A DNA stretch of 64,000 nucleotides from Clostridia bacterium. GTDB lineage: Bacteria; Bacillota; Peptococcia; Peptococcales; BICA1-8. The translations under genes were made by a program, and so were the position numbers. Where the stretch lies: positions 465 to 64,464 of the forward strand of contig JAAXZE010000007.1 in NCBI GenBank assembly GCA_012720075.1, read 5' to 3'. A model generated the notes under the pieces. It was not told the DNA's origin and searched no databases. It was given only the letters and a program-made list of their open reading frames with translations. Shown here in pieces: positions 2,847-61,550 of this stretch. Position 1 is the stretch's first letter. Each line of letters begins with the position of its first letter.

Positions 2847-2887
2847 ATAATATTGGTCATGTGTCCAATGGTCAGTGATTAATATTT

Positions 2888-2923
2888 AGTGTCATCGTGT
2901 CACCTTGACGCCGTGACATCGAA
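2888..2923 (+). repeat. Repeat module A, diverged copy, forming the first module of the composite element 2888-3043
   Basis: AGTGTCATCGTGTCACCTTGACGCCGTGACATCGAA aligns with the module A copies at 1508-1545 and 11062-11098 and, inverted, at 25355-25390. Confidence 0.75.
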
Positions 2924-3043
2924 AATTTATGAAAAATTGGAATGGTTGGCGTCATGTTAATGTTAACCTTAACTATAACTTCAGCCTCAATCTTTAACCT
3001 AGCAAAGCAAAACCTAAACTTTTTTTAAAACTGTAGCGCCGAC
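2888..3043 (+). repeat. Composite intergenic repeat, module order A-E-B-C
   Basis: Collinear over about 150 nt with the reverse complement of 25240-25392. Shared modules: GTGTCACC..GACGCCGTGACATCGAA, AAATTGGAATGGTTGG, and CTCAA.CTTTAA.CTAGCAA.GC. Confidence 0.85.
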
Positions 3044-3067: not shown

Positions 3068-3712
3068 TCAGTAAGCCGTTAATGGTATGTTACACAGTTC
3101 CACATGATATCGGCTGACTTTTTTCACGTATTTTTGGGGCAAGGATAAATCCTGGCGCAGTTTATTATCCACATAAGTTTCGCCGGCATTATAAGCGACA
3201 AGGACTTTTTCTAAATGGCCGTCGTAACGGTTGAGCAAACGTTTAAGAATATAGGTTCCCATTTGAATATTGGTATCGATATTAAATAGTTCTTCCCTGT
3301 TTTGGGGAGGATTTATGCCCATAAGCTTGGCCCAGTAGGGGGCATATTTATAGCGAATTTGCATAAGACCTGTATCATCAAGGGTACCTTTGCATAAGGG
3401 TTTAAATTGGCTTTCAGCGGCAATAACCGAAATAATCAGATTTTCCGGTACGTTGTACAAGGCGCTATATTTTTCAATGGCAGCAGCAATCAACTCAAAA
3501 GTTTCATCATCTAATTCGGGGTTTAATCTTTTTACCAAGGTCACAAATTCTTCATCGGACAAAAGTTTTGGTGGCTGCTTTTTGGGTGTCGGCTCGTGTT
3601 TGGGTAAGTGTAAGCTGTCATCGGCAACACCTTGGCTCGAACACCCGATGGAAGTAACCGCCAAAAGCAGCGATACCCCCACTGCCAAGGCCTTGCGTCT
3701 TTTTTTACACAT
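3068..3712 (-). CDS. Lytic transglycosylase (SLT domain) lipoprotein
   Basis: Lipobox LLLAVTSIGCSS. SLT catalytic region AAESQFKP..GLMQI..YNAG. ATG at 3712 lies 8 nt after a GGAGG SD; the listed ORF begins 2 codons earlier at a TTG. Confidence 0.85.
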   Translation of the reverse strand: MCKKRRKALAVGVSLLLAVTSIGCSSQGVADDSLHLPKHEPTPKKQPPKLLSDEEFVTLVKRLNPELDDETFELIAAAIEKYSALYNVPENLIISVIAAESQFKPLCKGTLDDTGLMQIRYKYAPYWAKLMGINPPQNREELFNIDTNIQMGTYILKRLLNRYDGHLEKVLVAYNAGETYVDNKLRQDLSLPQKYVKKVSRYHVELCNIPLTAY

Positions 3713-5484: not shown

Positions 5485-5494
5485 TTACTTACGG

Positions 5495-5765
5495 GTAAAT
5501 TTATTGGGTCTGATAGTACTCAAGAGTTGAGATATTGCGTCTGACATCTCCTCAATGGTTATATTTTTGGTCTGACAATATTAATTGGTTAACATTTTGA
5601 CCTTTAAAATAGAACGATTTGTATATGTGTATAATTAAATTTTATCAGACGCAAAAGATTGCCTTTTAGAACTTTCTAACCCATGAGTTAGACATCCTGG
5701 CAATTGTCAGACGCAAAAGATAGGCTTGTAGACAAATTATCTGACCCGCAAGATAGACCCTTAAG
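5495..5765. repeat. Palindromic word-array element (GTCTGA / TCAGAC words) inserted between the two transketolase subunit genes
   Basis: GTCTGA at 5508, 5539 and 5570 (31-nt period). The inverse TCAGACGCAAAAGAT is at 5645 and 5707 (62 nt apart), around an AT-rich centre. The right end GACCCGCAAGATAGACCC matches the ends of the uvr spacer elements. Confidence 0.8.
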
Positions 5766-5790
5766 ATAAAAGAAACGGAGGTTTTAATAT

Positions 5791-8674: not shown

Positions 8675-9548
8675 TTTTCGCTATACCCTCCGGGATGCAT
8701 TTCGTTCTATACGGCGTCATAAAAGCATGGCTTTTGCCTCGGTGTTTACTATTGCCATTTCTTTATTTGTTTTAGGAAGTACTCTGCTGTTGGTTGTCAA
8801 CAGCCAAAACTTGGTTTCGGAAATGGAATCCCAGGTTGAAATAAGTGTTTTTTTACACTTGGATGTTGACCGTAAAGATGCCTTGGCTTTGCAGAAAGAT
8901 ATTGAAAAGCTTCCCGGCTTTGATTCTCTGGAATTTATTCCTAAAGAAAAAGCTCTGGCAAATATGCAAAATAGATTTGGCCAGGATACTGATTTATTAG
9001 GAGCATTAGGAGGGAATAACCCTTTGCCTGATTCCTACAGAATTAAAGCCCAAAGCTCCGACAAGGTAACCGCCTTGGCCAAAGAATTAGAAAAGTTTCC
9101 TGAAGTGGAAAGTATAAGTTATGGAAAAGAATGGGTTGATAAACTGGTATCTTTTACCGTTATGGTAAAAAACGTAGGACTGGCGGTAATACTGGGTATG
9201 TTGATTGCCGGTTTGTTCTTAATTACAACAACTATTCGCTTGACGGTATTTGCCCGGAAAAAAGAAATCGGCATTATGAAATACGTTGGTGCTACCAACT
9301 GGTTTATTCGTTTCCCCTTTTTTTTGGAAGGCATGCTGATTGGTTTCTTAGGGGCTGTAGCCGCCGGTATAGTAATATATTTTGGTTATGGTGCGGCTAT
9401 TAACTATTGTCTGAAAACCATACCTTTTATCCCGGTGGTTGCCGATTATGACCTGTTGTTCCGTATCGTAGGACTGTTAATTCTGGGAGGAACCGTTATT
9501 GGAGCAATGGGTAGCGTAATTGCGGTCCGCAAGTATTTAAAGGTATAA
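8661..9548 (+). CDS. ftsX: Cell division permease-like protein FtsX
   Basis: 295 aa, one N-terminal TM, an extracellular domain and 3 C-terminal TMs. Translationally coupled to ftsE. Confidence 0.9.
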   Translation: MAFSSFRYTLRDAFRSIRRHKSMAFASVFTIAISLFVLGSTLLLVVNSQNLVSEMESQVEISVFLHLDVDRKDALALQKDIEKLPGFDSLEFIPKEKALANMQNRFGQDTDLLGALGGNNPLPDSYRIKAQSSDKVTALAKELEKFPEVESISYGKEWVDKLVSFTVMVKNVGLAVILGMLIAGLFLITTTIRLTVFARKKEIGIMKYVGATNWFIRFPFFLEGMLIGFLGAVAAGIVIYFGYGAAINYCLKTIPFIPVVADYDLLFRIVGLLILGGTVIGAMGSVIAVRKYLKV

Positions 9549-10994: not shown

Positions 10995-11148
10995 CTGTAG
11001 CTACAGTTATTAAGGTTAAGGTTTCGCTGCGCTAGGTTAAAGGTTGAGGTTAGAATACAAAAACGTGACATTGTGTCACCGTGCCATCGTGACATCGATT
11101 TTCAGTTGGGAAAGTTGGAATGTAATTCTCAACTCTCCATTCTCAATT
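10995..11148. repeat. Composite intergenic repeat, module order C-B(rc)-A-E-D(rc)
   Basis: CTGTAGCTACAG palindrome at 10995-11006. B module at 11010-11052. A module at 11062-11098, nearly identical to 1508-1545. D module at 11125-11148 is the reverse complement of 17671-17699. Confidence 0.85.
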
Positions 11149-11193: not shown

Positions 11194-12435
11194 TTGGTTT
11201 TTTTAAAGCTTATCCCTATGATTTTTTATAATCTTATATCCCTTTTTGGCCAGCCTATTTTTTGGCTTGTTGTGTTTATTATTTGGTTTCAGTTTAGGCG
11301 AATGGCTAAAATGAAGAGTGAGTTTTTTAATGTGCCGGAAGAAAGTGTACTCCGCCCTACCATTATTGCCACTGCTTTTGGAATTCTTGGCGGAGTGATT
11401 GGGAGTTTTGTCCTGGTTTTTGTAGGGGTTTCCGTCTTAGAGGTAGGGATTCAGTATCTGTGGGTGTTGGCTATTCTTTTTATGCTTATTGATCAGAGGT
11501 TTATGTGTTTTGCATATGCAGGGGGCATGGCCTCCATAGTAAACTATTTTTTTGGTTATCCCAATATCAGCATTCCCCAGGTTATGGCTTTAGTAGCAGT
11601 TCTTCATTTAGTGGAAGCATTGCTCATATTGTTAAGCGGGCATTTGGGCGCGGTGCCCATTTATGCCAAAAGTAAAGACGGCAGGCTGGTAGGGGGCTTT
11701 AATCTACAAAAATTTTGGCCCTTGCCTATAGTTGCTATGGTGGCTGTAATAGTTCCTGAAACAAATATTTTTTCTGATGTGATTAAAATGCCGGAATGGT
11801 GGCCCTTGATCAAGTCCAATCTGCCTGCCGACAACGACAACCTGCTTTACATGATGGTTCCTGTTATTGCCGGCCTTGGTTATGGAGATATCACCCTGAC
11901 TACCCATCCCCGGGAAAAAAGCCGTTATTCTGCTTTTTTCCTGGCTGTGTTTAGTATTATTCTTTTAGGGCTGGCTGTACTTGCCGCTAATTATCCCCGG
12001 TTGGCCATTTTAGCCGCTCTATTTGGCCCATTAGGTCATGAATTGGTAATTTTTATTGGAAGATATCGAGAATTTTCCCGGGAGCCTAAATTTGTCAGTC
12101 CACCCCAAGGTATTATGGTTCTTGATGTCTTGACTTCTTCTCCCCTTAGTTCGGCCGGTATCGGACCAGGTGATATAATTTTGTCCATTAACGGGATGGA
12201 AGTAAATAACAGTAACGATCTGGAATATGCCCTCCTGTTTGCCGGAAGTACCATTGAAATCCAGTATTTTTCGGAGCAAAAGAAAGTACTAAAAACGAAA
12301 AACATTCAAGGCGTAATGCCCGGAAAACCTTTGGGTTTAATAATTGTTCCGGACAATTATGGTTTTTCTTATCTGGATATTTCCCGAGGAGAAGGATTTT
12401 TCAAAAGATTAATGAAAAAGTTAAAAGGCAAGTAA
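11194..12435 (+). CDS. Polytopic membrane protein with a C-terminal PDZ domain
   Basis: Multiple TM helices, then PDZ (GIGPGDIILSINGMEV). Listed ORF 11044 extends upstream across the repeat element. TTG 11194 lies 7 nt after GGGGGAG; ATG 11218 is an alternative start. Confidence 0.75.
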   Translation: MVFLKLIPMIFYNLISLFGQPIFWLVVFIIWFQFRRMAKMKSEFFNVPEESVLRPTIIATAFGILGGVIGSFVLVFVGVSVLEVGIQYLWVLAILFMLIDQRFMCFAYAGGMASIVNYFFGYPNISIPQVMALVAVLHLVEALLILLSGHLGAVPIYAKSKDGRLVGGFNLQKFWPLPIVAMVAVIVPETNIFSDVIKMPEWWPLIKSNLPADNDNLLYMMVPVIAGLGYGDITLTTHPREKSRYSAFFLAVFSIILLGLAVLAANYPRLAILAALFGPLGHELVIFIGRYREFSREPKFVSPPQGIMVLDVLTSSPLSSAGIGPGDIILSINGMEVNNSNDLEYALLFAGSTIEIQYFSEQKKVLKTKNIQGVMPGKPLGLIIVPDNYGFSYLDISRGEGFFKRLMKKLKGK

Positions 12436-12441
12436 AGCTGC

Positions 12442-12470
12442 AAAAAATCACCGGAAAGGTGATTTTTTTT
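12442..12470 (+). terminator. Intrinsic terminator
   Basis: AAAAAATCACC-GGAAA-GGTGATTTTTTTT. Confidence 0.85.
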
Positions 12471-12586
12471 GCACTTTTCACTTTAGTCCCAAATAGGATA
12501 TAAAGGAAAATTACTCTCAGGAACATGGATAATCCGATATCCTAAGCCAAGTAAAGCCTGAAGCAACGGGCTTGCCTGAAGTTTAG

Positions 12587-13639
12587 TTGACTTATCGGAA
12601 ATTAAAGGAAAAAGGGGTGAAAATATTGGCTTTGCTCGTAGGTCGAAAAATTGAGTATTTTCTTTCCAGCCATTCGGGTGGGGGGCTAGTTACCTTTATA
12701 AATGACATGTGGCGCTTCTGTCAAAAAAAAGTTTTACTCGCCGGTGGTACTGATCAGATTCGTTCCAGAATTATTCGGAATGTTATTATAGAACTTCAAG
12801 ACAGGGGATATGATGTTGAAATAATCCATGGAACCTTAAACCCCGATATCCTGGAGGGAATTATCGTTCCCAAACTGGACTTGGCTTTAATTAGCGACAA
12901 TCCTCATTGGGAAGTAAAACTTAAAGAGGGCATAATAAATCTGGACCAATATCGTGATAATGAGAAATATCAGATTTATAAAAGCAAAATTCATGACCTG
13001 TATGAGCAGATAAACATGAATTTGGAACTGGCTTGGGATCAGTTGCAGCAGTTGCAGCAAAAATTCAGGGAAAAGTGTGACCAAGGTTGGGAACCGGATG
13101 GCAGGCATGCATTATATGTGGCTGAAAAAATTTTAGAAGCCCTTTTTTCGGTGGACGAAGGAAGAATTAATCATCGTTTTGGGCAGATTTTAACCTGTCG
13201 GGGACTAACTTCTTATTATCCCCAACTCTTGGCCAATTGCTCAACCAAATATTACCTTAACGGGGTAAAATATTTTAGTGGCAGCGGAATATTAAAACTG
13301 GTTACCCGGGAAGCGGTTTTAAAGGGATTGACGGTTGATGTTTATCATAATTTTCTGGAACCGGAACTGGTGGAACTTATTATTTTGGCCGATGCCAATT
13401 TAGCCCTGGCCATTAGACCTTTTGAACAGGGTTTTCAGCCCCTTTTGAAATATGAAAATATTCCTACGGTTAGTGAATCTGATTATTATTTGCAAGAAGA
13501 AGATTTTCAAGGTGTGCTTAATTTATTGGCTGAAACAGAAGGACTTTATGATCAATGCGCTGTTTTTTACCACGAAACCCTTGATTTTAAAGAAATAAGT
13601 AATTTGGAGGAGGGGCTCAAAGGGGAAATACTTGCTTGA
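12587..13639 (+). CDS. Hypothetical protein resembling the duplicated-P-loop ATPase family of Firmicutes (PRK06851-like), but with both Walker A motifs degenerate
   Basis: GYDVEIIHGTLNPDILEGIIVPKLDLALISDNPH matches my memory of the family core (GYD.E..HC..DP.SLDG..IPEL). The positions expected to read GxxGxGKS read LAGGTDQIRS and NGVKYFSGSG. Start is uncertain (TTG 12587 or GTG 12617). Confidence 0.55.
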   Translation: MTYRKLKEKGVKILALLVGRKIEYFLSSHSGGGLVTFINDMWRFCQKKVLLAGGTDQIRSRIIRNVIIELQDRGYDVEIIHGTLNPDILEGIIVPKLDLALISDNPHWEVKLKEGIINLDQYRDNEKYQIYKSKIHDLYEQINMNLELAWDQLQQLQQKFREKCDQGWEPDGRHALYVAEKILEALFSVDEGRINHRFGQILTCRGLTSYYPQLLANCSTKYYLNGVKYFSGSGILKLVTREAVLKGLTVDVYHNFLEPELVELIILADANLALAIRPFEQGFQPLLKYENIPTVSESDYYLQEEDFQGVLNLLAETEGLYDQCAVFYHETLDFKEISNLEEGLKGEILA

Positions 13640-13738
13640 AAATAACTATATTTTTGTTATCAGGTTAAACTATAAAAAGCGGAGCTTAAAAAGGAGAAAT
13701 GGGTTTAGTACTTTGGACAAAAGGGATTGATAAGTGAA

Positions 13739-14179
13739 ATGGGAACACTTCTACTGGGTACCGGAAATGAAATATGCGGTGATGATGGAATAGCTGCGGC
13801 AATTATCAGGGAAATAACAAAAAATCCTTTGCCAAGAGATATAAGAATAACATTTATAGGTACCGATCCTTTCTCCGTCTTAAACCAGGAGTTAATGGAT
13901 TTCCGGCGGATAATTGTTATTGATGGCATAAATACCGGGGGATCATGTGGGGATTCATATTTTATCCCCGGTGAGAAACTAATGTTTAGAGAACGGCCTT
14001 ATTCGATCCATGATATAACCTGGTTGGAGGTGCTGGCAATGGCCGGAGTTTTGTCAAAAACCTGGCTGTTTGCTGTTGAAACCGATACTTTAAATTTCGG
14101 TGAAGGGCTGAGCCCTGTTTTGAGGGGAAAACTAAGTCTTTACGCAGCAAAACTACGTAGGCTTATATGCACTTTTTGA
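13739..14179 (+). CDS. [NiFe] hydrogenase maturation endopeptidase (HyaD/HybD family)
   Basis: MGTLLLGTGNEICGDDGIAAAI matches the family N-terminus (GxGNxxxxDDGxG). Listed ORF starts 4 codons earlier at TTG 13727. Confidence 0.8.
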   Translation: MGTLLLGTGNEICGDDGIAAAIIREITKNPLPRDIRITFIGTDPFSVLNQELMDFRRIIVIDGINTGGSCGDSYFIPGEKLMFRERPYSIHDITWLEVLAMAGVLSKTWLFAVETDTLNFGEGLSPVLRGKLSLYAAKLRRLICTF

Positions 14180-14211
14180 ATACCGTTGGCCCGGCCGGTT
14201 AGCCGCTGGAA

Positions 14212-14841
14212 TTATTTTCTGGCGTAACCGGTAAAAATACTCTGCAGTTTGGCGGGGTCTTCGGTAAGGGCAAGATAAACATGGATAGGAATTGAGGCGA
14301 TAAAGAGCCAGGTGATTAGATAATGAACCTGGCGAATTTTATTTAACCCTCCCCAGAGTTTGATTATTGCTCCAAAGGTATCAGGAAAAAACAATAATAA
14401 CCCGGTAAAAATCTGGAGCAGTATTAGTAAAAACCAGGTGGAAAAAACTGCTTTATGTCCGGGATTATATTTGCCATAATACCCGTGGTTTTTCTTCAAG
14501 AAAAAAATATACCTTAAAAAGTCGGGGATAAACCTGAGGTCCCTCCGGCCCAGTATTATTTCACGGTAATGTTCGGTCCTTAAGCTGTAATAAACGTAAA
14601 CCAAAGTGTTGGCTATTAGGAGAAAATTAAAGACACCTTTAATATTTTTTATTGTTGAAAAAGAGTGTTCCAAAAATCTGGGGTAATGGAGATACATTCC
14701 GCAAATAATTAAAATCATGATAATGAAAAACTGGGTCCAATGCAAGATTCTGACCGGTAATGGGTGAAGTTGAACAAGGGCAGTGTCTATTTGTGGACCG
14801 GTGGGCCGGTGAGCAAACATTCTTTTTGTGGTATCAGACAT
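14212..14841 (-). CDS. [NiFe] hydrogenase b-type cytochrome subunit
   Basis: RILHWTQFFIIMILIICGMYLH plus three further TM helices with conserved His residues. ATG 14841 follows GGAGGAG; the listed ORF 14212..14985 upstream extension is not credible. Confidence 0.8.
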   Translation of the reverse strand: MSDTTKRMFAHRPTGPQIDTALVQLHPLPVRILHWTQFFIIMILIICGMYLHYPRFLEHSFSTIKNIKGVFNFLLIANTLVYVYYSLRTEHYREIILGRRDLRFIPDFLRYIFFLKKNHGYYGKYNPGHKAVFSTWFLLILLQIFTGLLLFFPDTFGAIIKLWGGLNKIRQVHYLITWLFIASIPIHVYLALTEDPAKLQSIFTGYARK

Positions 14842-14914
14842 GTATTTCTCCTCCCCAAAAAAATCTGTAGATACTTTAGCACCAGTAGAACTGTAGGAGT
14901 TCTGCGGTAGTCGA

Positions 14915-16320
14915 CTAAATCCTGTATTTACCCAAAGTTCGGTCTCCTTTAACCACATGGACGGCGCAAGAAAAACAAGGGTCAAAGGAGCGAATTACCC
15001 GCCCCACTTCAATCAGGCTGTCCATATTATTTATCGGTGTACCTATTAATGCTTTTTCTACAGGACCAGGGTTATCTTTACCGTCCCTGGGGGAGAAATT
15101 CCAGGCGCTGGGAGTTACTACCTGGTAATGGGCAATCCGGCCGTTTTTTATTTTTACCCAATGGCCTAAAGGCCCCCGCATGGAATCAATTAATCCTGTA
15201 CCTTCGGTCTCAGACAAAGGTTCATATTTTTTTAGTGAACCTTGGTTTATGTTTAGGTCTTCCAGCCAGGTAAACATGCCTTTTACAATTTCCCTTAGCT
15301 CTAGAGCCCGGGCAATGTTCCGGTCATTGACAGATACTCCCCTTCGATATATACCGTTAATCCAGAGACGGGCCAAGGGCCCTCCCTCAAATGGCTTATC
15401 CTGATAACGGGGGGCTTTAATCCAGGAATAAGCTCCCGGTTTTTGGTCGTCGGGGATGGTTTTTTCCTCATATGGATGACGGCCTGTATCCACTTCTTGA
15501 TAAAAGGAATTTGTTACTTCTTCGGTTATAAGTTTTGGCTCAATGCTTTTAGCTTCCTGAGAAAAATTTTCCGCAAAACCCGGTTTAAGCAAAGGTGATT
15601 TGTTATCGGTCAGGGGAAACATGCCATAGGTTATTAGGTTGCCGTAACCTTTGCCGATTTCATAATAATCGGGGTAATATTGGGCTACTGTATAGACGTC
15701 AGGAATATATTTTTCTTCCACAAAGGTTTGGATTTCTTTAAGGATGGAGAAAAACATATTTATTTTTTCAGCATTAGGTTTTTCCGCTATTCCGCCGGGC
15801 AAAATGGTTTGCTGATGGGGGCTTTGGCTCCCCAGATGGCCACCAACTGGTGGGCCTTGGCGCTTAAATGGATGGCAAGCCAGTAATTTTCGAACAGTGT
15901 TTTTTCAATATTGGGAGGAATTCGATAATCACCGGGCATTAACGGACGAAAAGGCGATGTTTCCGGACCCCGGGCATAATCGGGTAAAGTCAAGATATAA
16001 AACTGGCGCAGATGATTCTGGATAAAATCCGCCCCTACTATCAGGTTGCGAAGGAGGTAACCGTTATGGGCCGGGCTTATCCGGTATGCATCTTCTAAAG
16101 CTAAGGTACTGGCAAGGGCATGGGCAGTGGAACAAATACCGCATATTCTCTGAGAATAAAGGGGAGCATCCAAGGGGTGACGGTTTTCAAGCATTAGTTC
16201 AAATCCCCGGAATAAAGGGCTGTTAACCCAGGCATCGGTAATCACACCGTTATATACTTCTACTTCAACTTCCAAAGGTTCGTGGATTCTGGTTAGAGGA
16301 AAAACCTTTTTTTTCACCAC
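14915..16320 (-). pseudogene. [NiFe] hydrogenase large subunit, split by a 1-nt frameshift in a C5 (plus-strand G5) run at 15817-15821
   Basis: ORF 15787..16320 carries the N-terminal ligand motif RICGICSTAH. ORF 14915..15802 carries the C-terminal DPCFSCAVH plus a cleavable tail. The conserved GAKAPHQQTILPGG is recovered only by shifting -1 after GCC CCC. Confidence 0.8.
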
Positions 16321-17604
16321 TTATTTCTCAGTCCTTTTTCTTTTCCAAAATTTCAATTTGTACAACAAGGAATTATTCCTTTTGGCTAATACTTTGTTTA
16401 AATCTTTTTGCAGGGTTTTTTGGGTATGCAGTATCTCCTCCAGTTTATCCATTACTAATTCCTGGCTGACTTCATTTTTTAACTCGGAAGTCTTTGAAGT
16501 TAGAGAATGAAGAATAATTTCTTCTACAGTAACCTTTTCGCCGGGGCCGGGCTCCTGCAATTGGGTGCCTTTAATTAAATTTCTACCCAATCTTCCGGTA
16601 ACAACGGAGCCGATGGCGTGGGCCGTGATACCCAAGGCTGCCATACCTCCAATGGCGGCCCCTACCTTTTCCACATGGGTTTTGCCCCAAGGTAAATAGG
16701 TATCCGGTAAATGTTTGAAATAGGGCATCATACCATCGGGGAAATGAGGACTGGCACAACCAATGCAGGGAACTCCCGCTTCAACGGGCCAGTTAACATG
16801 GTTGTTCCACTGGCGGATGGGGCAATCGGCATAAGTGACCGGTCCTTTGCAGCCGATTTTATAGAAACAGCCTTCATCCCCAGGATATTGGGCAAATTTT
16901 CCATCATTAAAATCGGAACGCCTGTTGCACAGGTCGTGGATGGTTTTGCCGAAAAACATGGTCGGGGAATTATAATCGTTTAATTCAGGCTCACCGTACA
17001 TTATAAGGTGGGCCAGAGTACCGATCATCCAATCGGGATGGGAGGGACAGCCCGGGATGTTAATAACTTTGCGGTCCAGTACTTCGGAAACGGCAACGGC
17101 TTTGGAAGGGTTGGGGTAAGCAGCACCCGGTCCGCCAAAGGCGGCACAATCACCTACGGCCATGACATATTTGGCATGGGGAGCCAGCTCTTTTAAAAGT
17201 TCGATGCCCGGTATCAGACGGCCTTTTCGTTCCATTACCAAGTTGTATCTTCCTTTATCTCGGGTAACTACGGAACCTTCTATTATTAAAATGAACCGGC
17301 CGGAGTCATTTTCCACTGTTCTTTGCAAATTCTCAATGGCCAAGTCCCCTTGGGACTGCATAAATAACCAGTGGTAGCGAAGGTCGATCATTTCTAAAAG
17401 CAGTTTTTTTAAGTCCGGGTCGAAAGTATTATCCAGTGAGATGGTTTCTCCGGTACAAGAGCCCAATTCAAGCCAGATCACCGGTGTTCGGTCTATTTCC
17501 CCTTGGGCTAAGGCCGCAAAAACCGGTGACTTTAAAAGACCGGCCAAACTTATCCCCATAGTGGTTTGCATACATAGTTTTATAAATTCTCTTCTACTTA
17601 GCAC
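16321..17604 (-). CDS. [NiFe] hydrogenase small subunit, Tat-exported, with an unusually long C-terminal tail
   Basis: Twin-arginine signal MLSRREFIK. FeS cysteine clusters (GSCTGE, GDCAAFGG, CPIRQW..CIGC). TM anchor GAAIGGMAALGITAHAIGSVV, then about 85 charged residues. GTG start after GGGGAG. Confidence 0.9.
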   Translation of the reverse strand: MLSRREFIKLCMQTTMGISLAGLLKSPVFAALAQGEIDRTPVIWLELGSCTGETISLDNTFDPDLKKLLLEMIDLRYHWLFMQSQGDLAIENLQRTVENDSGRFILIIEGSVVTRDKGRYNLVMERKGRLIPGIELLKELAPHAKYVMAVGDCAAFGGPGAAYPNPSKAVAVSEVLDRKVINIPGCPSHPDWMIGTLAHLIMYGEPELNDYNSPTMFFGKTIHDLCNRRSDFNDGKFAQYPGDEGCFYKIGCKGPVTYADCPIRQWNNHVNWPVEAGVPCIGCASPHFPDGMMPYFKHLPDTYLPWGKTHVEKVGAAIGGMAALGITAHAIGSVVTGRLGRNLIKGTQLQEPGPGEKVTVEEIILHSLTSKTSELKNEVSQELVMDKLEEILHTQKTLQKDLNKVLAKRNNSLLYKLKFWKRKRTEK

Positions 17605-17630
17605 AATTTATTTCTCCCCGCCTAAAATAT

Positions 17631-17799
17631 TAGTGTTTTAGTGTGTGAGTGTGAAAGTGTGTAAGATTAGTTGAGAATTGAGAATGAGAGTTGAGAATGT
17701 TCCTTTCCACTTCTTCCAACAATCCATTTTTTCAGCTAAATATATTAACCTTAACCTAGTGAAGCGCAACCTTAACCTTAAAAAACTGTAGAACTGCAG
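17631..17799. repeat. Composite intergenic repeat, module order F-D-E-B-C, in the leader of the hydrogenase operon
   Basis: F GTGTGTGAGTGTGAAAGTGTGTAAG. D TTGAGAATTGAGAATGAGAGTTGAGAATG. B TTAACCTTAACCTAGTGAAGCGCAACCTTAACCTTA. C AAAAACTGTAGAACTGCAG. Collinear with the reverse complement of 10995-11148 apart from the missing A module. Confidence 0.85.
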
Positions 17800-17970
17800 C
17801 CTCGGAAAAGCTGTGCTTTGAAAATAATTCAAAGCTAGACTTTTTCTAATTGGTATCTTCTCCAATATTTACATGTAATATTTATTTTTTTCGATTGAGG
17901 TTTCAAAGAAACGGGTAATAAATTATGATATAATCACAACTTAGAAGAAGATAAGCGGTGGTGGAAACTT

Positions 17971-19953: not shown

Positions 19954-19954
19954 G

Positions 19955-20290
19955 CTTTGGGGCTATTTTTGGGGTCGGCATGACGGCGTGACGTCTTTGG
20001 GGTTACAATGCACGTCAGTATGACGTCTTACAGGTTATGTCACAGGTCCGCATGACGGCCTACAGGTTATATTTTAGGTCCGCATAATGGTTTAGGTGAT
20101 AATTTACAGAAAATATTTATATTTTGCTGACCCATGATATTGGCTTGGTAGACGTCATGCTGACCAAAAAGTAGCGGAGGAGCCGTCATGCCGTCCCAAA
20201 ATGTTGCCTGTTAGCCGTCATGCAGACCCTAGAGTTTAACCCGTTAGCTGTAATGCTTGACCCTAAAAGATGACCCACTAGCTACAGGAG
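19955..20290. repeat. Imperfect palindrome of about 335 nt built from four degenerate ~32-nt units per arm (core GCATGACG / CGTCATGC)
   Basis: Left-arm cores at 19978, 20018, 20050 and 20082. Right-arm inverse cores at 20153, 20184, 20216 and 20249. Symmetry centre near 20120. Confidence 0.85.
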
Positions 20291-20299
20291 GGAATAGAC

Positions 20300-23128
20300 A
20301 TGGCCAAAGATAAAATCATAATCAAAGGAGCGAGGGTAAATAACCTTAAAAACATAGATATTGAAATACCCAGGGATAAATTTGTAGTAATAACCGGTCT
20401 CAGCGGCTCGGGAAAGTCTTCTTTAGCTTTTGATACCATTTATGCTGAAGGACAGCGCAGATATGTGGAATCTTTATCTGCCTATGCCCGGCAGTTTTTG
20501 GGCCAGATGGATAAGCCTGACGTTGATTATATCGAGGGCTTATCACCGGCCATATCCATTGACCAGAAAACTACCAACCGTAATCCCCGGTCAACGGTGG
20601 GCACGGTAACGGAAATCTACGATTATCTTCGGTTGTTATTTGCCCGGATTGGAGTACCCCACTGTTATAAATGCGGCACGCCCATAGCCCAGCAAACCGT
20701 CCAGCAGATGGTAGACCAACTGATGAGCTATCCTGAAAGAACCAAATTGCAGATTTTAGCGCCGGTTATCCGGGGACGAAAAGGTGAGCACAGGAAAGTA
20801 CTGGAGGATTTAAAAAAAAGCGGTTATGTGCGGGTTATGGTAAATGGAGAGTTGAGGGAATTAAGTGAAGAAATCATCTTGGATAAAAATAAAAAGCATA
20901 ACATTGAGGTGGTGGTTGACCGGGTAATTATCAAGGAAGGTGTGGAAAGCCGGTTGGCAGATTCGCTGGAAACGGCCTTAAATTTATCGGAAGGCGTAGT
21001 CAATGTGGATATTATTGACGGGGAAAGGCTGGTTTTTAGCCAGAATTTTGCCTGTGTTGACTGCGGTATCAGTTTTCCGGAGATTACCCCTCGAATGTTT
21101 TCCTTTAACAGTCCTTATGGGGCCTGCCCCGAATGTGACGGTTTAGGAACAAAACTGGAAATAGAGCCGGATTTGGTTATACCGGACTGGACTTTGTCCC
21201 TGGCTGAAGGAGCCATAGCCCCCTGGAGTAAAAATACCAACGGTTATTATCAGCAAATTTTGGCGGCGGTGGGTAAGCATTATGGTTTCAGCATGCATAC
21301 TCCTGTCGGCAAATTGCAGCCGGAACATATTCATGTTATTTTATATGGCTCCGGCAATGAAAAAATTAGAATAAAATATACCAATATGTATAATGAAACC
21401 CGGGTTTATGACTCTGTCTTTGAAGGGGTCATCCCCAATCTCTACCGGCGGTATCTGGAGACCCAGTCCGAGTTGTCTAAGGCCGAGACGGAACAGTATA
21501 TGACCAATAAACCCTGTCCCCGATGCAAAGGCGCTCGGCTGAAACCTGAGGTTTTGGCGGTAAAAATCGCCGGAAAAAATATTTCGGAAGTTACGGATAT
21601 GACGGTTTCAGAAATTAAGAATTTCTTTGATAATTTAAAGCTTACGGAGAGAGAGTTACTTATTGGCCGTCAGGTTCTGAAAGAAATTAAGGAAAGGTTG
21701 AACTTTCTGGTCACGGTAGGTTTGGATTATTTGACCTTAAGCAGGACTGCCGCTACATTGTCCGGAGGTGAAGCCCAGCGGATCAGACTGGCGACCCAGA
21801 TAGGGTCAGGGTTGGTCGGTGTTCTTTATATCCTGGACGAGCCCAGCATCGGTTTGCATCAACGGGATAATGACCGTTTGATTGAGGCTTTAAAACATTT
21901 GCGGGATATCGGCAATACTTTAATCGTTGTGGAACATGACGAAGACACTATGCTGGCCGCCGATCATATCATAGATATAGGTCCGGGGGCCGGAGCCCAT
22001 GGCGGGAAGGTAGTAGCCCAGGGTACCATCGAAGAAATCAAGGCGGTTAAAGAATCCATTACCGGCCAATATCTATCCGGTGCCAAGAAAATTCCCGTTC
22101 CGTTAATCAGGCGCCCTCCCAATGGCAAATGGATAAGGGTCAAAGGCGCCACTGAAAACAATCTGAAAAATCTGGATGTCGCTTTTCCTTTAGGGGTTTT
22201 CACCTGTGTCACCGGGGTTTCAGGTTCCGGCAAAAGTACCCTGGTCAATGAAATCCTTTATAAAGGCCTTATAAGGAAACTGTATAAAAACTCCAAAGTG
22301 GAACCCGGTCAACATATTTCCATAGAAGGTGCGGAGCACCTGGATAAAATAATCGACATAGACCAGTCCCCCATCGGCCGGACGCCCCGGTCTAATCCGG
22401 CTACCTATACATCGGTTTTTGATGCCATCAGGGAGATTTTTGCCCAAACTCCTGAGGCCCGGATGCGGGGCTATAAACCCGGTCGCTTTAGTTTTAACGT
22501 AAAAGGGGGCCGCTGTGAGGCATGCCGGGGAGATGGAATAATTAAAATTGAGATGCATTTTCTGCCTGACGTTTATGTGCCTTGTGAAGTATGTAAGGGT
22601 CAGCGCTATAATCGGGAAACCCTGGAGATTAAATATAAAGGGAAAAATATTGCCCAAGTTTTGGATATGACGGTAGATGAGGCTGTTGAATTTTTCCAAA
22701 ACCTGCCTAAAATCTATCGCAAGCTGAAAACTCTACAGGATGTGGGGTTGGGTTATATCCGCCTGGGTCAGCCGGCTACCACTTTATCGGGCGGTGAAGC
22801 CCAAAGGGTTAAGTTGGCTACCGAACTTTCTCGCCGTAGTAATGGTAAAACCCTGTATATTCTGGATGAGCCTACAACGGGCCTGCATATAGCCGATATT
22901 CATAAACTTTTGGGGGTATTGGCCCGTTTAGTTGACGCCGGAGATACGGTAGTAGTTATCGAGCATAATTTGGATGTAATAAAATGTGCCGACTATGTCA
23001 TTGATTTAGGACCGGAAGGTGGCAATAAAGGGGGACAAATCATTGCTATCGGAACACCCGAAGAGATAGCCGGTGTAGAGGAGTCTTATACGGGACAATT
23101 CTTGCGCAAAGTGCTGAGCAAGGGATGA
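20300..23128 (+). CDS. uvrA: Excinuclease ABC subunit A
   Basis: Two ABC modules ([18 protein letters not shown]; two LSGGEAQR signatures) and zinc-finger cysteines. Confidence 0.97.
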
Positions 23129-23365
23129 GCATGACGGCTCTAAAGCTATTCTGCACGTCAGTATTAAAACAATAACTAGCTTGATTACTACAGGCAGCTT
23201 GCGCAAAAAGTATTATAAAAAAACCGACCTAATATTTTACTTGGTAGACGTCACACCGACCCAATGTTTAACTCCGGTGACGTCACTCCGGCCTTATATC
23301 TAAACCCGTGAGCCGTCATGCTGACCCGAAAGATTGCAAAGCAGCCATCATGCCACCCAAGGGAG
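23129..23365. repeat. Second member of the GCATGACG/CGTCATGC element family, in the uvrA-uvrC spacer
   Basis: GCATGACGGC starts immediately after the uvrA stop. CTTGGTAGACGTCA (23240) is shared with 20144. GCCGTCATGCTGACCCGAAAGAT lies at 23302-23324. An internal ACTAGCTTGATTACTACAGG module lies at 23175-23194. Confidence 0.8.
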
Positions 23366-23374
23366 GTGACTTTC

Positions 23375-25234
23375 TTGTTGCAAGACAAAATTAACGCTTT
23401 ACCCGCGAAACCCGGAGTGTATCTAATGAAAAATGCCGAAGGGGAGATCATTTATGTGGGTAAAGCCGTTTCGCTGAAAAACAGGGTTAAATCCTATTTT
23501 CAAAGTAAAAGGCATGATTCGGCCAAAACCAGGGCTTTAGTTAAAAATATCGCCGATTTGGAATACATTATTACCGATAATGAACTGGAAGCCTTAATCT
23601 TGGAATGCAATTTGATTAAGAAACACAGGCCGAAATATAACATTAGCCTTAAAGATGATAAAACTTACCCTTATCTTAAGATAACCGCCGAAGAATTTCC
23701 CCGGGTTATTGTAACCCGTAAGGTTTATAAAGACGGAGCAAAATATTTCGGCCCCTATACCAGTGCCACAAGCCTCAGGGAAACCGTTGAATTATTAAAA
23801 AAGCTGTTTCCTTTCCGCAGTTGCAATCAAAAGGTATTTTCCAATGAGAGGCCTTGTCTGAACGCCTATATCAAAAGATGTCTGGCCCCCTGTCAGGGGG
23901 GTATTACCAGGGAACAGTACGGTGAAATCATTAAACAGGTTGAACTTTTTTTGGAAGGCAAACAAGAGGCTTTGATAATAAAGCTGGAAAATGAAATGGA
24001 ACAGGCGGCATTGAACCTGGAGTTTGAGCGGGCGGCCCAATTAAGGGACCAGATAATTAGTATTAAACAGGTTATAGAAAAACAGAAAATTGTTTCCGCC
24101 GGTGATGAAGACCAGGATGTTATGGCTATGGCCAGAGGTTTTAACGAAGTTTGTGTCCAGGTTTTTTTCATCAGAGGTGGAAAACTGATTGGCCGGGAGA
24201 ATTTCTTTTTAAAAGGGACCGATGATATGGAGCGTTCCGAAGTGCTGGAAGCTTTTATAAAGCAATACTACATTCAGCAGGATTTTGTACCCAAGGAAAT
24301 ACTGGTAGAAACCGAATTACCTGAAGTAAAGGTTCTGGAACAATGGCTTTCAGAAAAGAAGGGACAACGGGTATATATCAAGGTCCCCAAAAAAGGAGAA
24401 AGAAAGGAACTCTTGGAACTGGTAGCCAAAAATGCCTTAGAGGCTATGGAAAAAGCGGACCTGGAAAGAGAGCAGAAGAAAAGTATGACTGAAGGAGCTT
24501 TATTGGAATTGCAAAAAGAACTGGCTTTGCCCAAGCTGCCCCTTCGTATTGAATGTTATGATATATCCAATACCCAAGGAACGGAAACTGTAGCTTCAAT
24601 GGTAGTCTTTGAAGGCGGTAAGCCTAAAAAGGACCAATACCGCAGGTTCAGGATAAAAACGGTGGAAGGCCCTAATGACTTTGCCAGTATGTACGAGGTA
24701 ATAACCCGCAGATTTCGTAACGCCAGGGAAGAAAACAACTCCGGCGACCAAGGGAAATTTTCATCTTTGCCCGATTTGGTCATTATTGACGGTGGTAAAG
24801 GACAATTGCAGTCTGCCAGGAAAGCCATGGAGGAGCAGGGGTATGCTTATATCCCCACCTATGGCCTGGCCAAGCGGGAGGAATGGCTTTTTTTCGAAGA
24901 GGAATCGGAGCCCATTATCCTACCCCGTTCTTCCAAGGCCCTCTTTCTTCTGCAGCGGATCAGAGACGAAGCTCACCGTTTTGCTATAACTTATCACAGA
25001 AGCTTACGGGGTAAAAGGAACTTGGCTTCCATCCTGGATGATATCCATGGTATTGGGGAGAAAAGAAAGAAAAAACTCCTGCAGCATTTCGGCTCTTTTA
25101 AAAAAATTCAATCGGCAAGTATTGAAGAGCTTCAAGAGGTAGAAGGAATTAACCGCAAAGTTGCCGAAGCAGTATACGATTACCTTCGCACTCACCAGGA
25201 TTTATTGCTTAGAACTAGAAATAGTGAGGATTAA
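23375..25234 (+). CDS. uvrC: Excinuclease ABC subunit C
   Basis: GIY-YIG (GVYLMKNAEGEIIYVGKA), UVR domain, endonuclease and HhH2 C-terminus. TTG 23375 lies 8 nt after GGAGG; the listed ORF start 23318 lies inside the repeat. Confidence 0.93.
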   Translation: MLQDKINALPAKPGVYLMKNAEGEIIYVGKAVSLKNRVKSYFQSKRHDSAKTRALVKNIADLEYIITDNELEALILECNLIKKHRPKYNISLKDDKTYPYLKITAEEFPRVIVTRKVYKDGAKYFGPYTSATSLRETVELLKKLFPFRSCNQKVFSNERPCLNAYIKRCLAPCQGGITREQYGEIIKQVELFLEGKQEALIIKLENEMEQAALNLEFERAAQLRDQIISIKQVIEKQKIVSAGDEDQDVMAMARGFNEVCVQVFFIRGGKLIGRENFFLKGTDDMERSEVLEAFIKQYYIQQDFVPKEILVETELPEVKVLEQWLSEKKGQRVYIKVPKKGERKELLELVAKNALEAMEKADLEREQKKSMTEGALLELQKELALPKLPLRIECYDISNTQGTETVASMVVFEGGKPKKDQYRRFRIKTVEGPNDFASMYEVITRRFRNAREENNSGDQGKFSSLPDLVIIDGGKGQLQSARKAMEEQGYAYIPTYGLAKREEWLFFEEESEPIILPRSSKALFLLQRIRDEAHRFAITYHRSLRGKRNLASILDDIHGIGEKRKKKLLQHFGSFKKIQSASIEELQEVEGINRKVAEAVYDYLRTHQDLLLRTRNSED

Positions 25235-25239
25235 ATTAA

Positions 25240-25392
25240 AGATTACGCCAACATTGTTGGCTATCTTACGCCTTGCTAGATTAAAGGTTGAGGTTAAGGT
25301 TAAAGGGTATTAACGTGACATCATGATACCAACCATTTCAATTTTTTTTAAGCTTTCGATGTCACGGCGTCACGGTGACACGATGTCACAAA
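25240..25392. repeat. Composite intergenic repeat, module order B(rc)-E(rc)-A(rc)
   Basis: Reverse complement is collinear with 2888-3043. Contains the palindrome GCCAACATTGTTGGC and a duplicated TTACGCC. Confidence 0.85.
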
Positions 25393-25432
25393 ATCTTTGT
25401 CATCAGTAACTATTTATAAGGGGGTGTGTGGA

Positions 25433-25777: not shown

Positions 25778-25895
25778 TCAGTGTGTAAGTATGACATCTT
25801 AAATTTTATTCTGATTTTCAGTGTGTTTGTGAGTAAGAGATTTTTTAATACTATAGCACTAACCCACTTAAACACTTATGCACTCACTAGCAACT
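25778..25895. repeat. Palindromic word element (GTGTGTAAG/GTGAGTAAG left, CACTTAAACAC/CACTCAC right) ending at the cof RBS
   Basis: Left CAGTGTGTAAG (25780) and CAGTGTGTTTGTGAGTAAG (25820). Right ACCCACTTAAACACTTATGCACTCACTAGCAAC (25862-25894). Confidence 0.7.
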
Positions 25896-39799: not shown

Positions 39800-39807
39800 G
39801 ATGATGA

Positions 39808-39867
39808 GGTTAAGGTTAAGGCTAAGGTTAAGGCTAAGGTTAAGGTTAAGGCTAAGGTTAAGGTTAA
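39808..39867 (+). repeat. Hexanucleotide tandem repeat GG(T/C)TAA x10
   Basis: Ten contiguous units starting 9 nt after the gpmI stop. The unit is the reverse-complement word of repeat module B (AACCTTAACC). Confidence 0.95.
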
Positions 39868-39959
39868 GGTTTTACTTAGGTATAAAAGATATATTTTCAT
39901 TAGGTTTAGCTTTTTTGGATTATAGGTAAGCAAACATAGGGGTATAGTAAGCTAATAAA

Positions 39960-41382
<1,423 letters not shown>

Positions 41383-41504: not shown

Positions 41505-41600
41505 TGGACATTAGGCATTAGTATCTGTGGTCATTTGTGATTAGATTAATTTAAAATTAATACTAGTCACCATTTACCAGTCACTAAAGACGAGGGAGGT
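41505..41600. repeat. Imperfect palindrome ending at the secG RBS
   Basis: GTGATTAGATTAATT (41537-41551) versus the reverse complement of AATTAATACTAGTCAC (41555-41570). The arms extend with GTGGTCATTTG / CATTTACCAGTCAC. Confidence 0.65.
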
Positions 41601-44912: not shown

Positions 44913-45032
44913 TTGAGCGTCAAATATTTAAATCAAAAGAACTGGTACGAACGTGGTGATGTCATACCCTTTTTTGACAAATTATATTATTTTTGTCGAA
45001 AAAACAAGAAAGGGATTGGCACAATCTTGTAA
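44913..45032 (+). CDS. Possible 39-codon upstream ORF (MSVKYLNQKNWYERGDVIPFFDKLYYFCRKNKKGIGTIL)
   Basis: TTG 44913 lies 9 nt after a strong AAAGGAGGAAA SD, and TAA 45030-45032 lies 6 nt before the ABC ATPase start. No homology recognised, so it may be non-coding leader. Confidence 0.25.
   Translation: MSVKYLNQKNWYERGDVIPFFDKLYYFCRKNKKGIGTIL
44939..44954 (+). promoter_or_regulatory. Candidate operator copy 2 (GAACTGGTACGAACGT)
   Basis: Lies in the leader of the ABC transporter operon, about 85 nt upstream of its start. Confidence 0.5.
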
Positions 45033-49487: not shown

Positions 49488-49790
49488 ATTTTTTTGGATA
49501 ATGAAGGTACGGATGTCTGTACCTAAATAATAAATATAACTATAAAAATATATGTGGGAGGTAATTTTTATGTAGGAAAAATAATTAACTACTGCAGGTC
49601 CGAAAACATTTTATATTCCTACTTAATAATCACCTGTTTTTAGGTAATACGGTTGATTGTCAAGGTTTGGCACTGGAGGGCTTTAAAACAGTAATACTAA
49701 CGGAATAATGGGATTTACTTGCAGAATTAAATAAAACTGCAAATTTGTATCTGCAAAGGCTTATAATGAATAAGCCTAAAAAAATAGAAG

Positions 49791-49805
49791 CACTGGTACG
49801 AACGT
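49791..49805 (+). promoter_or_regulatory. Candidate operator copy 3 (CACTGGTACGAACGT)
   Basis: Lies about 50 nt upstream of the aminotransferase start and about 25 nt downstream of a TATAAT at 49762-49767. Confidence 0.5.
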
Positions 49806-58166: not shown

Positions 58167-58279
58167 GAGGTTTAGGCTAAGGTTAAGGTTATATTGTATT
58201 TAATATAATAGCTTTATTCCTTTCTCAACCTTAACCTAGCGTAGCGAAACCTTGATCTTAATTTGTTTTAAACTGTCAC
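58167..58279. repeat. Repeat family copy (hairpin of B-module words, then modules B and C)
   Basis: TAGGCTAAGGTTAAGGTT (58173-58190) is inverted relative to AACCTTAACCTAGCGTA (58227-58243). CTCAACCTTAACCTAGCGTAGCGAAACCTTGATCTTA matches 17746-17780. Confidence 0.8.
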
Positions 58280-61131: not shown

Positions 61132-61195
61132 AAAAGAGATAAATTAATAAATAAATATCTGACTTCCGACTTCTGATTTCAGACATCTATTTCAT

Positions 61196-61550
61196 GGGGG
61201 TGTAATGGTTTCGACGGGGGAATTCGGTGGCTTGAGAAGCGAGTCGAGGTCGCACTGGCTCGTTAAACGTTGCACAAAAAATAAACGCTAAAAACAATAA
61301 CTTAGCTTTAGCTGCTTAATTGCAGTCTAACCTCCTACTTGCCTTTGCCTGTGGGGCGAGCAAGGGGGTCACATTAGCAGGCTACTCTTAAGTAACCGCC
61401 TTGTAGCTTAAGGGGAAACTTACAGGGCTGGCCGATGGAAATCCTGTTTGTGGGAGTTCCTGAGGCGAGATGCCAAAACACAAACTACGCTCGTAGATGC
61501 TCAGGTGGTCGATCTTCCGGACAGGGGTTCGACTCCCCTCACCTCCACCA
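61196..61550 (+). ncRNA. ssrA: tmRNA (SsrA), predicted tag reading frame GCT AAA AAC AAT AAC TTA GCT TTA GCT GCT TAA (AKNNNLALAA)
   Basis: The 5' GGGGGTG pairs with the 3' CACCTCCACCA acceptor stem, including G3:U. T-arm GGGGTTCGACTCCCC. The tag ORF ends ..LALAA-TAA. Located directly after smpB. Confidence 0.93.

Follow-up and report, generated by a model that had tools for sequence, protein, structure and literature searches.

The 64,000-nucleotide stretch of Clostridia bacterium contig JAAXZE010000007.1 (assembly GCA_012720075.1), referred to here as the window, carries two small non-coding core units, A (extended in some copies to A-E) and B-C, which are built of reiterated 8- and 6-base words and have been copied into intergenic spaces. 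The modules are genuine repeats. They probably represent a new sequence family of small non-coding interspersed mosaic intergenic repeats akin to the repetitive extragenic palindromes (REP) and bacterial interspersed mosaic elements (BIME), to BOX, and to the short tandemly repeated repetitive sequences (STRR) and long simple sequence repeats (SSRs). On this same reading A and B-C are multi-copy members of a lineage-wide repeat set found in an uncultured Peptococcales clade that uses a limited vocabulary of 6-8-nt words. A preliminary description of the window had proposed a modular, mosaic and orientation-variable intergenic family at six or more loci, and reading the six listed loci in full, with module positions checked against the letters, bears this out: the six intergenic loci carry A and/or B-C, and the cores of both occur far above shuffle expectation. 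That description had overlooked the tandem-array make-up of every module and the common word vocabulary that fills the spacers of the whole clade.

Module A is 37 nt long and consists of 4.2 copies of the octamer CGTGACAT (period 8, found twice by Tandem Repeats Finder, TRF). Its four full-length copies in the window lie at 1508-1544, 2886-2922 and 11062-11098 on the forward strand and at 25356-25392 on the reverse strand, with 0-8 mismatches. The core GTGTCACNNTGNCNNCGTGACATCGA has four matches, at 1519, 2897 and 11073 (+) and at 25356 (-), while none is expected from 100 dinucleotide-preserving shuffles; the core agreement of about 31 of 35 positions first reported is about right (88% of 34). 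In all copies the second unit carries GTGTC and the array ends in ATCGA, and two subfamilies are distinguished, 1508/11062 (95% identical) and 2886/25356. The likeness is not confined to the array, as 2884-2956 matches 25394-25322 over 73 nt at 86% identity, non-array sequence included, and the match runs on into B to give an A-E-B composite of ~130 nt, which two loci carry in opposite orientations. These shared variant units, non-array sequences and subfamilies imply that the A copies derive from one another and not from convergent expansion. The A(-E) unit measures 40-75 nt. The repeat words show strong intergenic enrichment, GTGACAT having a density of 0.98 per kb in intergenic DNA versus 0.02 per kb in coding DNA (P = 2e-7).

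Modules B and C, initially listed as separate, form in a profile search with nhmmer a single unit of ~60 nt that reads CTCAACCTTTAACCTAGCGNAGCGAAACCTTAACCTTAA..AAACTGTAG. AACCTT hexamers (period 6) flank the unique core TAGCGNAGCGAAA and the unit terminates in AAACTGTAG. Four copies were found, at 2976-3039(+), 10999-11058(-), 17734-17793(+) and 58216-58278(+), together with a degenerate one at 25257-25302(-) which contains (AAGGTT)3.3 at 25284-25303. The B core TTAACCTAGNNNAGCNNAACCT matches at 2994(+), 11019(-), 17751(+) and 58231(+), compared to 0.02 matches expected.

A and B-C occur together in three spacers, more often than by chance (hypergeometric P = 0.006), and adjoin each other and the D, F and G arrays in mosaic clusters. 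The first base of A copy 1 (1508-1544, +) lies 5 nt past the secA stop codon, and module G (1549-1620, +), formed by three GATGCATC words with hairpins, is found 3' of it. In the spacer between the convergent prfB and SLT-domain protein genes, A-E copy 2 (2884-2956, +), with A at 2886-2922, E at 2937-2945 and a partial inverted A word GGCGTCA at 2948-2954, combines with the B-C unit at 2976-3039 into an A-E-B-C composite. The cluster at 10995-11148 begins 19-23 nt past the stop codon of a ctpA-like gene. It has an inverted B-C unit (10999-11058, -) whose C part is the palindrome CTGTAGCTACAG at 10995-11006, followed by A-E copy 3 (11062-11123, +; A at 11062-11098, the copy 95% identical to copy 1) and by D' (11124-11148, -). 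The divergent hydrogenase/uvrB spacer holds F (17630-17665, +), D (17671-17699, +) and B-C (17734-17793, +); the E module once assigned to this locus is weak. The reverse-strand A-E copy 4 (25309-25394; A at 25356-25392) is located with the degenerate B unit between uvrC and a gene for a PF04020 membrane protein. It has a closing inverted word CGTGACATC at 25312-25320, and the GTGACAT...ATGTCAC bracket noted earlier is present at 25313-25389. Finally, the B-C copy 3' of a thioesterase gene (58216-58278, +) has as inverted partner the adjacent hexamer array (AGGTTA)4 at 58168-58191 (+).

Inversion of the A-E block relative to B had been claimed between 10995-11148 and 25240-25392. It holds for 10995-11148, where B-C is inverted and on the opposite side of A-E when compared to the other two composites, so the relative orientation does vary; the arrangement at 25240-25392 is merely the reverse complement of the A-E-B part of 2888-3043.

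All modules are in turn built as short imperfect tandem arrays, with TRF periods of 8, 6, 7 and 8. Module D is made of TTGAGAA (period 7, x4.1) and F of TTAGTGTG (period 8, x4.1), and TRF detected hexamer arrays of period 6 with 10.8, 4.0 and 3.3 units. The longest, (AGGTTA)10.8 at 39807-39871 (+), spans 65 nt between gpmI and eno and is composed of the word of B. From the original module list A, B and D recur, D once and reversed (11125-11148 versus 17676-17698, 96% over 24 nt), its partner D' reading as AATTCTC heptamers (x3.6). F is single-copy in the window, apart from an F-like stretch at 25780-25835. The 9-mer E and the 10-mer C have 17 and 19 one-mismatch matches in the window and are not significant alone; E gains significance solely inside the 73-nt A-E match 2884-2956 / 25394-25322.

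The gene content of the window (secA, prfB, ftsEX, ctpA, [NiFe] hydrogenase, uvrBAC, gap-pgk-tpi-gpmI-eno, rnr, smpB and tmRNA) is that of a Clostridia-class Firmicute. Five of the six repeat loci begin 5-58 nt past a stop codon and the sixth lies in a divergent promoter region. A and B-C each occur in both orientations with respect to adjacent genes, and their spacers may be convergent, co-directional or divergent.

The sequences were described as unrecognised and remained so in every collection searched. With gathering and E-value thresholds, the Rfam scan proposed at the outset returned tmRNA as the sole match in the whole window, leaving the modules unmatched, and searches of short slices at E <= 10 gave chance-level matches of 10-16 bits. 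An exact-pattern scan for the A core had zero matches in 185,579 species genomes, a set that does not include the source species. The A and B cores were not found in viral contigs, nor the composite in plasmids and phages (blastn), and a phage, plasmid or viral origin is therefore unsupported. Literature searches with the word strings and on repeat families of Peptococcaceae turned up no earlier description; the DCMF genome paper gives only a total periodic-repeat content (PMC6778437).

Syntenic loci of 12-22 kb from nine relatives place the repeats in a phylogenetic frame. The window UvrB (NLT94036.1) belongs to an uncultured Peptococcales clade with 83-90% UvrB identity, and the Desulfonispora thiosulfatigenes protein is 78-79% identical to it. 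The nearest UvrA proteins in the collection of GTDB species reach 74-76% and come from uncultured Thermoanaerobacteraceae-labelled, HGW-Firmicutes-14 and Peptococcia metagenome-assembled genomes. Counted for periods of 5-9 nt and at least 2.8 copies, arrays reach 0.22-0.68 per kb in the window and in loci L084, L085, L088 and L089, 0.09-0.15 per kb in L090 and L091, and 0 per kb in L092 and L093. The value for 80 uvrA loci of other Bacillota (1.53 Mb) is 0.058 per kb, and these loci have zero module matches. Array density thus sets an array-rich subclade apart from all other loci compared; its spacers, in the source organism as in relatives whose UvrB is 86-93% identical, are full of 6-8-nt word arrays.

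The expansion of intergenic DNA in this subclade is evident around the uvr genes. The uvrB-uvrA, uvrA-uvrC and uvrC-next gene spacers are 346, 189 and 162 nt long in the window, 241, 484 and 82 nt in L084, and 400, 398 and 59 nt in L085, against 23, 18 and 13 nt in Desulfonispora. Since gene order is identical between L093 (D. thiosulfatigenes, 11980-16724) and the window (19954-25396) and the Desulfonispora spacers have only 13-23 nt, the array-rich state is derived within a subclade. The ~130-nt uvrB promoter/leader (17839-17970), which adjoins the variable zone, hardly varies within the clade, showing that turnover is specific to the repeat zone. This leader includes the near-palindrome TCCAATA(A/T)TTACATG(T/G)AATATT, a candidate operator, possibly for an SOS-type repressor, and a TATGATATAAT -10 region.

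The closest relative is L002 (FZPS01000062.1), whose UvrB fragment has 93% amino-acid and 86% nucleotide identity to that of the window. It gave the sole match in a scan of metagenomes for the A core. In L002 an inverted A plus G is found directly upstream of the conserved uvrB promoter, while in the window A-G lies 3' of secA; the two composites agree at 92% in A and 85% in G, with an 18-nt indel between the modules. The corresponding site of the window is occupied by F-D-E-B-C, so placement is non-orthologous, which lends indirect support to the suggestion of mobility in the preliminary description. An orthologous B-C unit is present upstream of uvrB in L089 (998-1052), its C part having four CTGTAGNN units versus two in the window. 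L091 has a B-like unit beside the ftsX terminator. L084 gives a weak B-C match, its uvrB-upstream site holding B and other words, and it has an F-type array (AGTGTGTA)5.5 at 12007-12050.

The words are more widely shared than the units. Those of F, D, G and C, the hexamer and the NAGTCAC heptamer also occur in L084, L085 and L088, at non-orthologous sites. AAGGTT, NAGTCAC, GTGTGTAA, TTGAGAA, CTGTAG and GATGCATC recur in genomes with 86-90% identical UvrB although the spacers around them cannot be aligned. In Desulfotruncus alcoholivorax (L008 3917-4035) TTCTGAC-type heptamer arrays form inverted pairs, and the array architecture is thus wider than one genus.

Two further contigs inform on variation at short distance. 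L083 was assembled independently from a metagenome containing the same organism; it runs collinear with the window (one mismatch in 300 nt) and its 58216-58278 copy is identical but for 1 nt. L001 is a Logan contig of a strain with 98% identity; it begins (L001 1-10) within the (AGGTTA) array that lies between gpmI and eno, and its next 80 nt are diverged. Both short-read contigs, L001 and L002, end inside arrays, as multi-copy repeats would predict.

Judged from sequence comparison, whole arrays with their variant units and non-repetitive spacers have evidently been copied to new intergenic sites in either orientation, because arrays together with adjoining non-repetitive sequence are found at non-orthologous sites both within the genome and between sister species. 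The arrays themselves would gain and lose units through slipped-strand mispairing, as suggested by the two C units of the window versus four in L089 upstream of uvrB and by varying copy numbers elsewhere. New copies may land preferentially beside existing repeats and just 3' of stop codons, giving rise to BIME-like mosaics. Recombination or template switching between word arrays would be a more plausible copying route than a dedicated transposase, given the lack of inverted termini and duplications and the variable spacing of modules. Most copies are presumably selectively near-neutral spacer DNA, and some may form hairpins in 3' untranslated or intercistronic RNA.

Several observations weigh against the interpretation as a dispersed, largely neutral repeat family. 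Copies were counted in only 64 kb of the source genome and ~150 kb of relatives, A being seen once outside the window (L002) and B-C only in L089 and L091 and as the weak match of L084. The same types of word are retained by genomes with otherwise unalignable spacers, and (NAGTCAC)n arrays are strictly sense-oriented and close to a Shine-Dalgarno sequence. This persistence and placement hint at selection on at least some arrays, for which a purely neutral model does not account.

The (NAGTCAC)n sites recorded are 40046-40076 and 41560-41590 in the window, 17490-17517 and 20977-21004 in L084, 9952-9979 in L085 and 17958-17992 in L088. The (NAGTCAC)4 array at 40046-40076 lies directly 5' of the eno ribosome-binding site. 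Five arrays of at least three units were counted in 170 kb from the clade. Each of them is sense-oriented, and four lie 6-51 nt upstream of a detectable Shine-Dalgarno sequence; the 1.53 Mb of control loci from other Bacillota have no such array.

The family shares traits with several known repeat systems. Like the enterobacterial REP and BIME, the units are short, extragenic, mostly located just 3' of genes or between cistrons, present in either orientation and grouped in mosaic clusters of motifs, A and B-C being adjacent in three spacers with both relative orientations. They differ from REPs, imperfect palindromes of 20-40 nt with a GTAG head, in that they are not imperfect palindromes and have unrelated sequences, and from REP and BIME alike in that every module is a tandem array of 6-8-nt words.

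A likeness to the BOX elements of Streptococcus pneumoniae had been drawn at first. Both are modular, intergenic and multi-copy, vary in module number and composition, and have a mobilisation mechanism that is not known. The fixed boxA-boxB(n)-boxC order of BOX is not seen, the module order changing from locus to locus with A-E-B-C, C'-B'-A-E-D', F-D-E-B-C and A-G, a comparison made with the description of BOX rather than by alignment to its consensus. The stable RNA fold common to BOX elements is likewise absent from the copies analysed, and sequences and host lineage are unrelated; membership of BOX is not supported.

A further correspondence is with the long SSRs and STRR, defined by units of 5-11 nt in at least three head-to-tail copies at many non-coding loci, a description that fits the arrays of the window. 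As set out in the published accounts (PMC4692102; Mrazek 2007 via PMC4679880), those repeats also have tandem units of 6-8 nt, are almost solely intergenic and lineage-specific, vary in length and sequence between close relatives, include some inverted pairs and lie nearer the upstream open reading frame (ORF). This proximity to the neighbouring upstream ORF is reported for the heptameric intergenic repeats of Xanthomonas and Nostoc (GGGAATC / GGGGA(C/T)T; PMC4692102). Unlike in long SSRs, many word types coexist here, and the imperfect arrays A and B-C form fixed units with subfamilies that are dispersed in multiple copies. Moreover, the host belongs to the Firmicutes, and no report of such arrays in Firmicutes turned up in the literature. 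Cyanobacterial STRR1-3 are the heptamers CCCCAGT, TTGGTCA and CAACAGT of heterocystous cyanobacteria. None of these is among the TRF consensus units of the Peptococcales-like Firmicute studied here.

A parallel can also be drawn with the TAACTGA direct repeats of marine Beggiatoaceae, Cyanobacteria and Bacteroidetes, which occur in 2-6 or more copies a few nt upstream of start codons and were proposed as sites for a translational regulator, their phylogenetic spread being unexplained (PMC4679880). The (NAGTCAC)n arrays upstream of Shine-Dalgarno sequences are similar, with a different word. The likeness does not extend to A and B-C, most copies of which are located behind stop codons and whose orientation is not fixed. 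What sets the family apart is that particular imperfect arrays behave, in a Firmicute clade, like fixed units dispersed in multiple copies.

Among the alternatives, non-autonomous mobile elements of MITE (miniature inverted-repeat transposable element) or REP type deserve the most weight, although they are unlikely. Such elements would be moved in trans by an IS200/IS605-type or REP-associated (RAYT) Y1 transposase recognising hairpins or the CTGTAG end. Dispersal in both orientations, clustering and non-orthologous placement between close relatives are all consistent with this idea, as are the many hairpin-forming inverted array pairs (58168/58223, 25312/25358, families H and S, the (GTGGGCGA) pair in L084 2712-2943 and the heptamer pairs in L008). 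B-C ends sharply at AAACTGTAG, whose resemblance to the conserved GTAG of REPs is suggestive only. Against transposition, inspection of the aligned ends of the copies revealed neither terminal inverted repeats nor target-site duplications; a 9-bp inverted word is present in a single A-E copy. No structure is predicted for B-C, which lacks terminal inverted repeats, A alone has just a 6-bp palindrome, and inter-module spacing varies, as in the 18-nt indel that distinguishes the A-G of L002 from that of the window. There is no transposase among the genes flanking the elements, the other window genes not having been screened.

It is also unlikely, if conceivable, that the word arrays are multi-site recognition arrays for DNA- or RNA-binding proteins, with roles in post-transcriptional control, insulation or nucleoid organisation, A and B-C being two cassettes of them. 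The use of the same words by genomes with 86-90% identical UvrB despite unalignable spacers, the orientation and position of (NAGTCAC)n and its absence from the control loci, and the parallel to TAACTGA repeats (PMC4679880) all argue for recognition. The occurrence of A and B-C in both orientations to genes and in all three spacer types argues against it, and so does their absence or replacement at orthologous sites of close relatives with unchanged gene order. Periods of 6-8 bp, in addition, would not hold sites on one helix face. Compared by eye, A bears no convincing resemblance to the operator consensus sequences of CRP/FNR, CtsR, the Spo0A box or the Cheo box.

A bolder form of this proposal, rather doubtful at present, is that the arrays constitute a lineage-wide recognition code in which each word (CGTGACAT, AACCTT, NAGTCAC, TTGAGAA, GTGTGTAA, CTGTAG, GATGCATC) would have its own nucleic-acid-binding protein as reader or a dedicated copying machinery as writer, A and B-C being mobile cassettes. 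If true, such a code would give the unexplained STRR and TAACTGA arrays a parallel among the Firmicutes, in a clade accessible through enrichment cultures.

Ten units or composites were folded as RNA, which bears on the very improbable explanation that the composites encode small regulatory RNAs or structured elements acting in cis. A-G at 1505-1625 folds well (z -4.4) and the A-E copy at 25305-25395 is predicted to form a hairpin of -25.7 kcal/mol (z -2.9). These two, the only significant folds, adopt different structures, and A-E copies fold differently from one another. Most units have z-scores of -0.75, -1.5, +1.2, -0.4 and +0.8, B-C is predicted to lack structure (z +0.8 to +1.2), and A alone has only the 6-3-6 palindrome GTGACA-N3-TGTCAC. 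With no structure common to the ten folded units or composites, the small RNA or riboswitch idea was dropped; the lack of Rfam matches even at E <= 10 and an orientation independent of neighbour genes agree with this. Promoter and terminator scans gave no consistent signal around the units, the only matches being weak antisense terminator-like ones on the A palindrome, and a terminator role is for this reason not favoured. A function of the arrays as all-frame stop-codon source is speculation, as several words have no stop codon.

That the A-E block is a DNA switch flipped by a site-specific recombinase, or undergoes the active inversion first envisaged, is scarcely credible: the block does occur in both orientations relative to B-C and the 25309-25392 copy is bracketed by the 9-bp inverted word CGTGACATC/GATGTCACG, but the opposite orientations are found at separate loci and never at one locus, only ~37 nt separate the inverted words, the 11062 copy lacks the closing word, no recombinase adjoins any copy (the neighbours being uvrC and the PF04020 protein gene for the 25309-25392 copy and prfB and the SLT-domain protein gene for 2884-3039), and L083 has the same orientation at the one comparable locus.

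The interspersed repeat family adds an undescribed member, and with it an array-rich Firmicute clade, to the few bacteria with abundant intergenic arrays of 6-8-nt words, previously cyanobacteria, Xanthomonas and Beggiatoaceae, in which origin and function are still unexplained. Close relatives with and without arrays and a strictly kept gene order, their shared spacers being 13-23 nt long in Desulfonispora and 160-480 nt here, provide a clean comparative system for studying how arrays are created and maintained. The clade-wide word vocabulary and its contrast with the compact Desulfonispora spacers form the more interesting lead. In practical terms, such repeats break short-read assemblies, supply fast-evolving strain markers and could be misannotated as regulatory RNAs or switches.

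Other repeated sequences are present in the window and its relatives. A family of 32-nt units with GCATGACGGC/ATGACGTC words is found between uvrB and uvrA and between uvrA and uvrC, as a direct set and then an inverted set, in the window (19954-20299, 23129-23317) and in L085 (11984-12383, 15213-15610). The two sets could form a very long hairpin inside a possible uvrBAC operon. The GCGTCTGACA-word family (window 5485-5790, L084 15054-15537, L091 19624-20010) consists of several direct units and, past an AT-rich centre, several inverted ones (TGTCAGACGC), and extends over ~480 nt in relatives. L089 has a different small element in at least three copies within 12 kb (870-990, 3220-3420, 8825-8935), with ends TTAAACCACGGGCCC / GGGCCCGTGGTTTAA and inverted arrays of ACACGGAT-type words. 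In the window a TCTGACTT/CCGACTT-type array at 61157-61194 abuts the 5' side of the tmRNA gene (61196-61550) and is similar to the paired TTCTGAC arrays of D. alcoholivorax. An 18-nt motif with ACTGGTACGAACGT at 44937-44954 and 49788-49805 lies upstream of two operons (starting at 45039 and 49855) and may be the site of a common regulator.

In prfB (1726-2829), upstream of the A-E-B-C composite, the programmed +1 frameshift site usual for this gene is present as CTTTGAC near 1790. An additional in-frame TAA at 2305-2307, within a conserved motif, separates the PCRF and RF-1 domains and could be a nonsense mutation, the mark of a pseudogene or a sequencing error.

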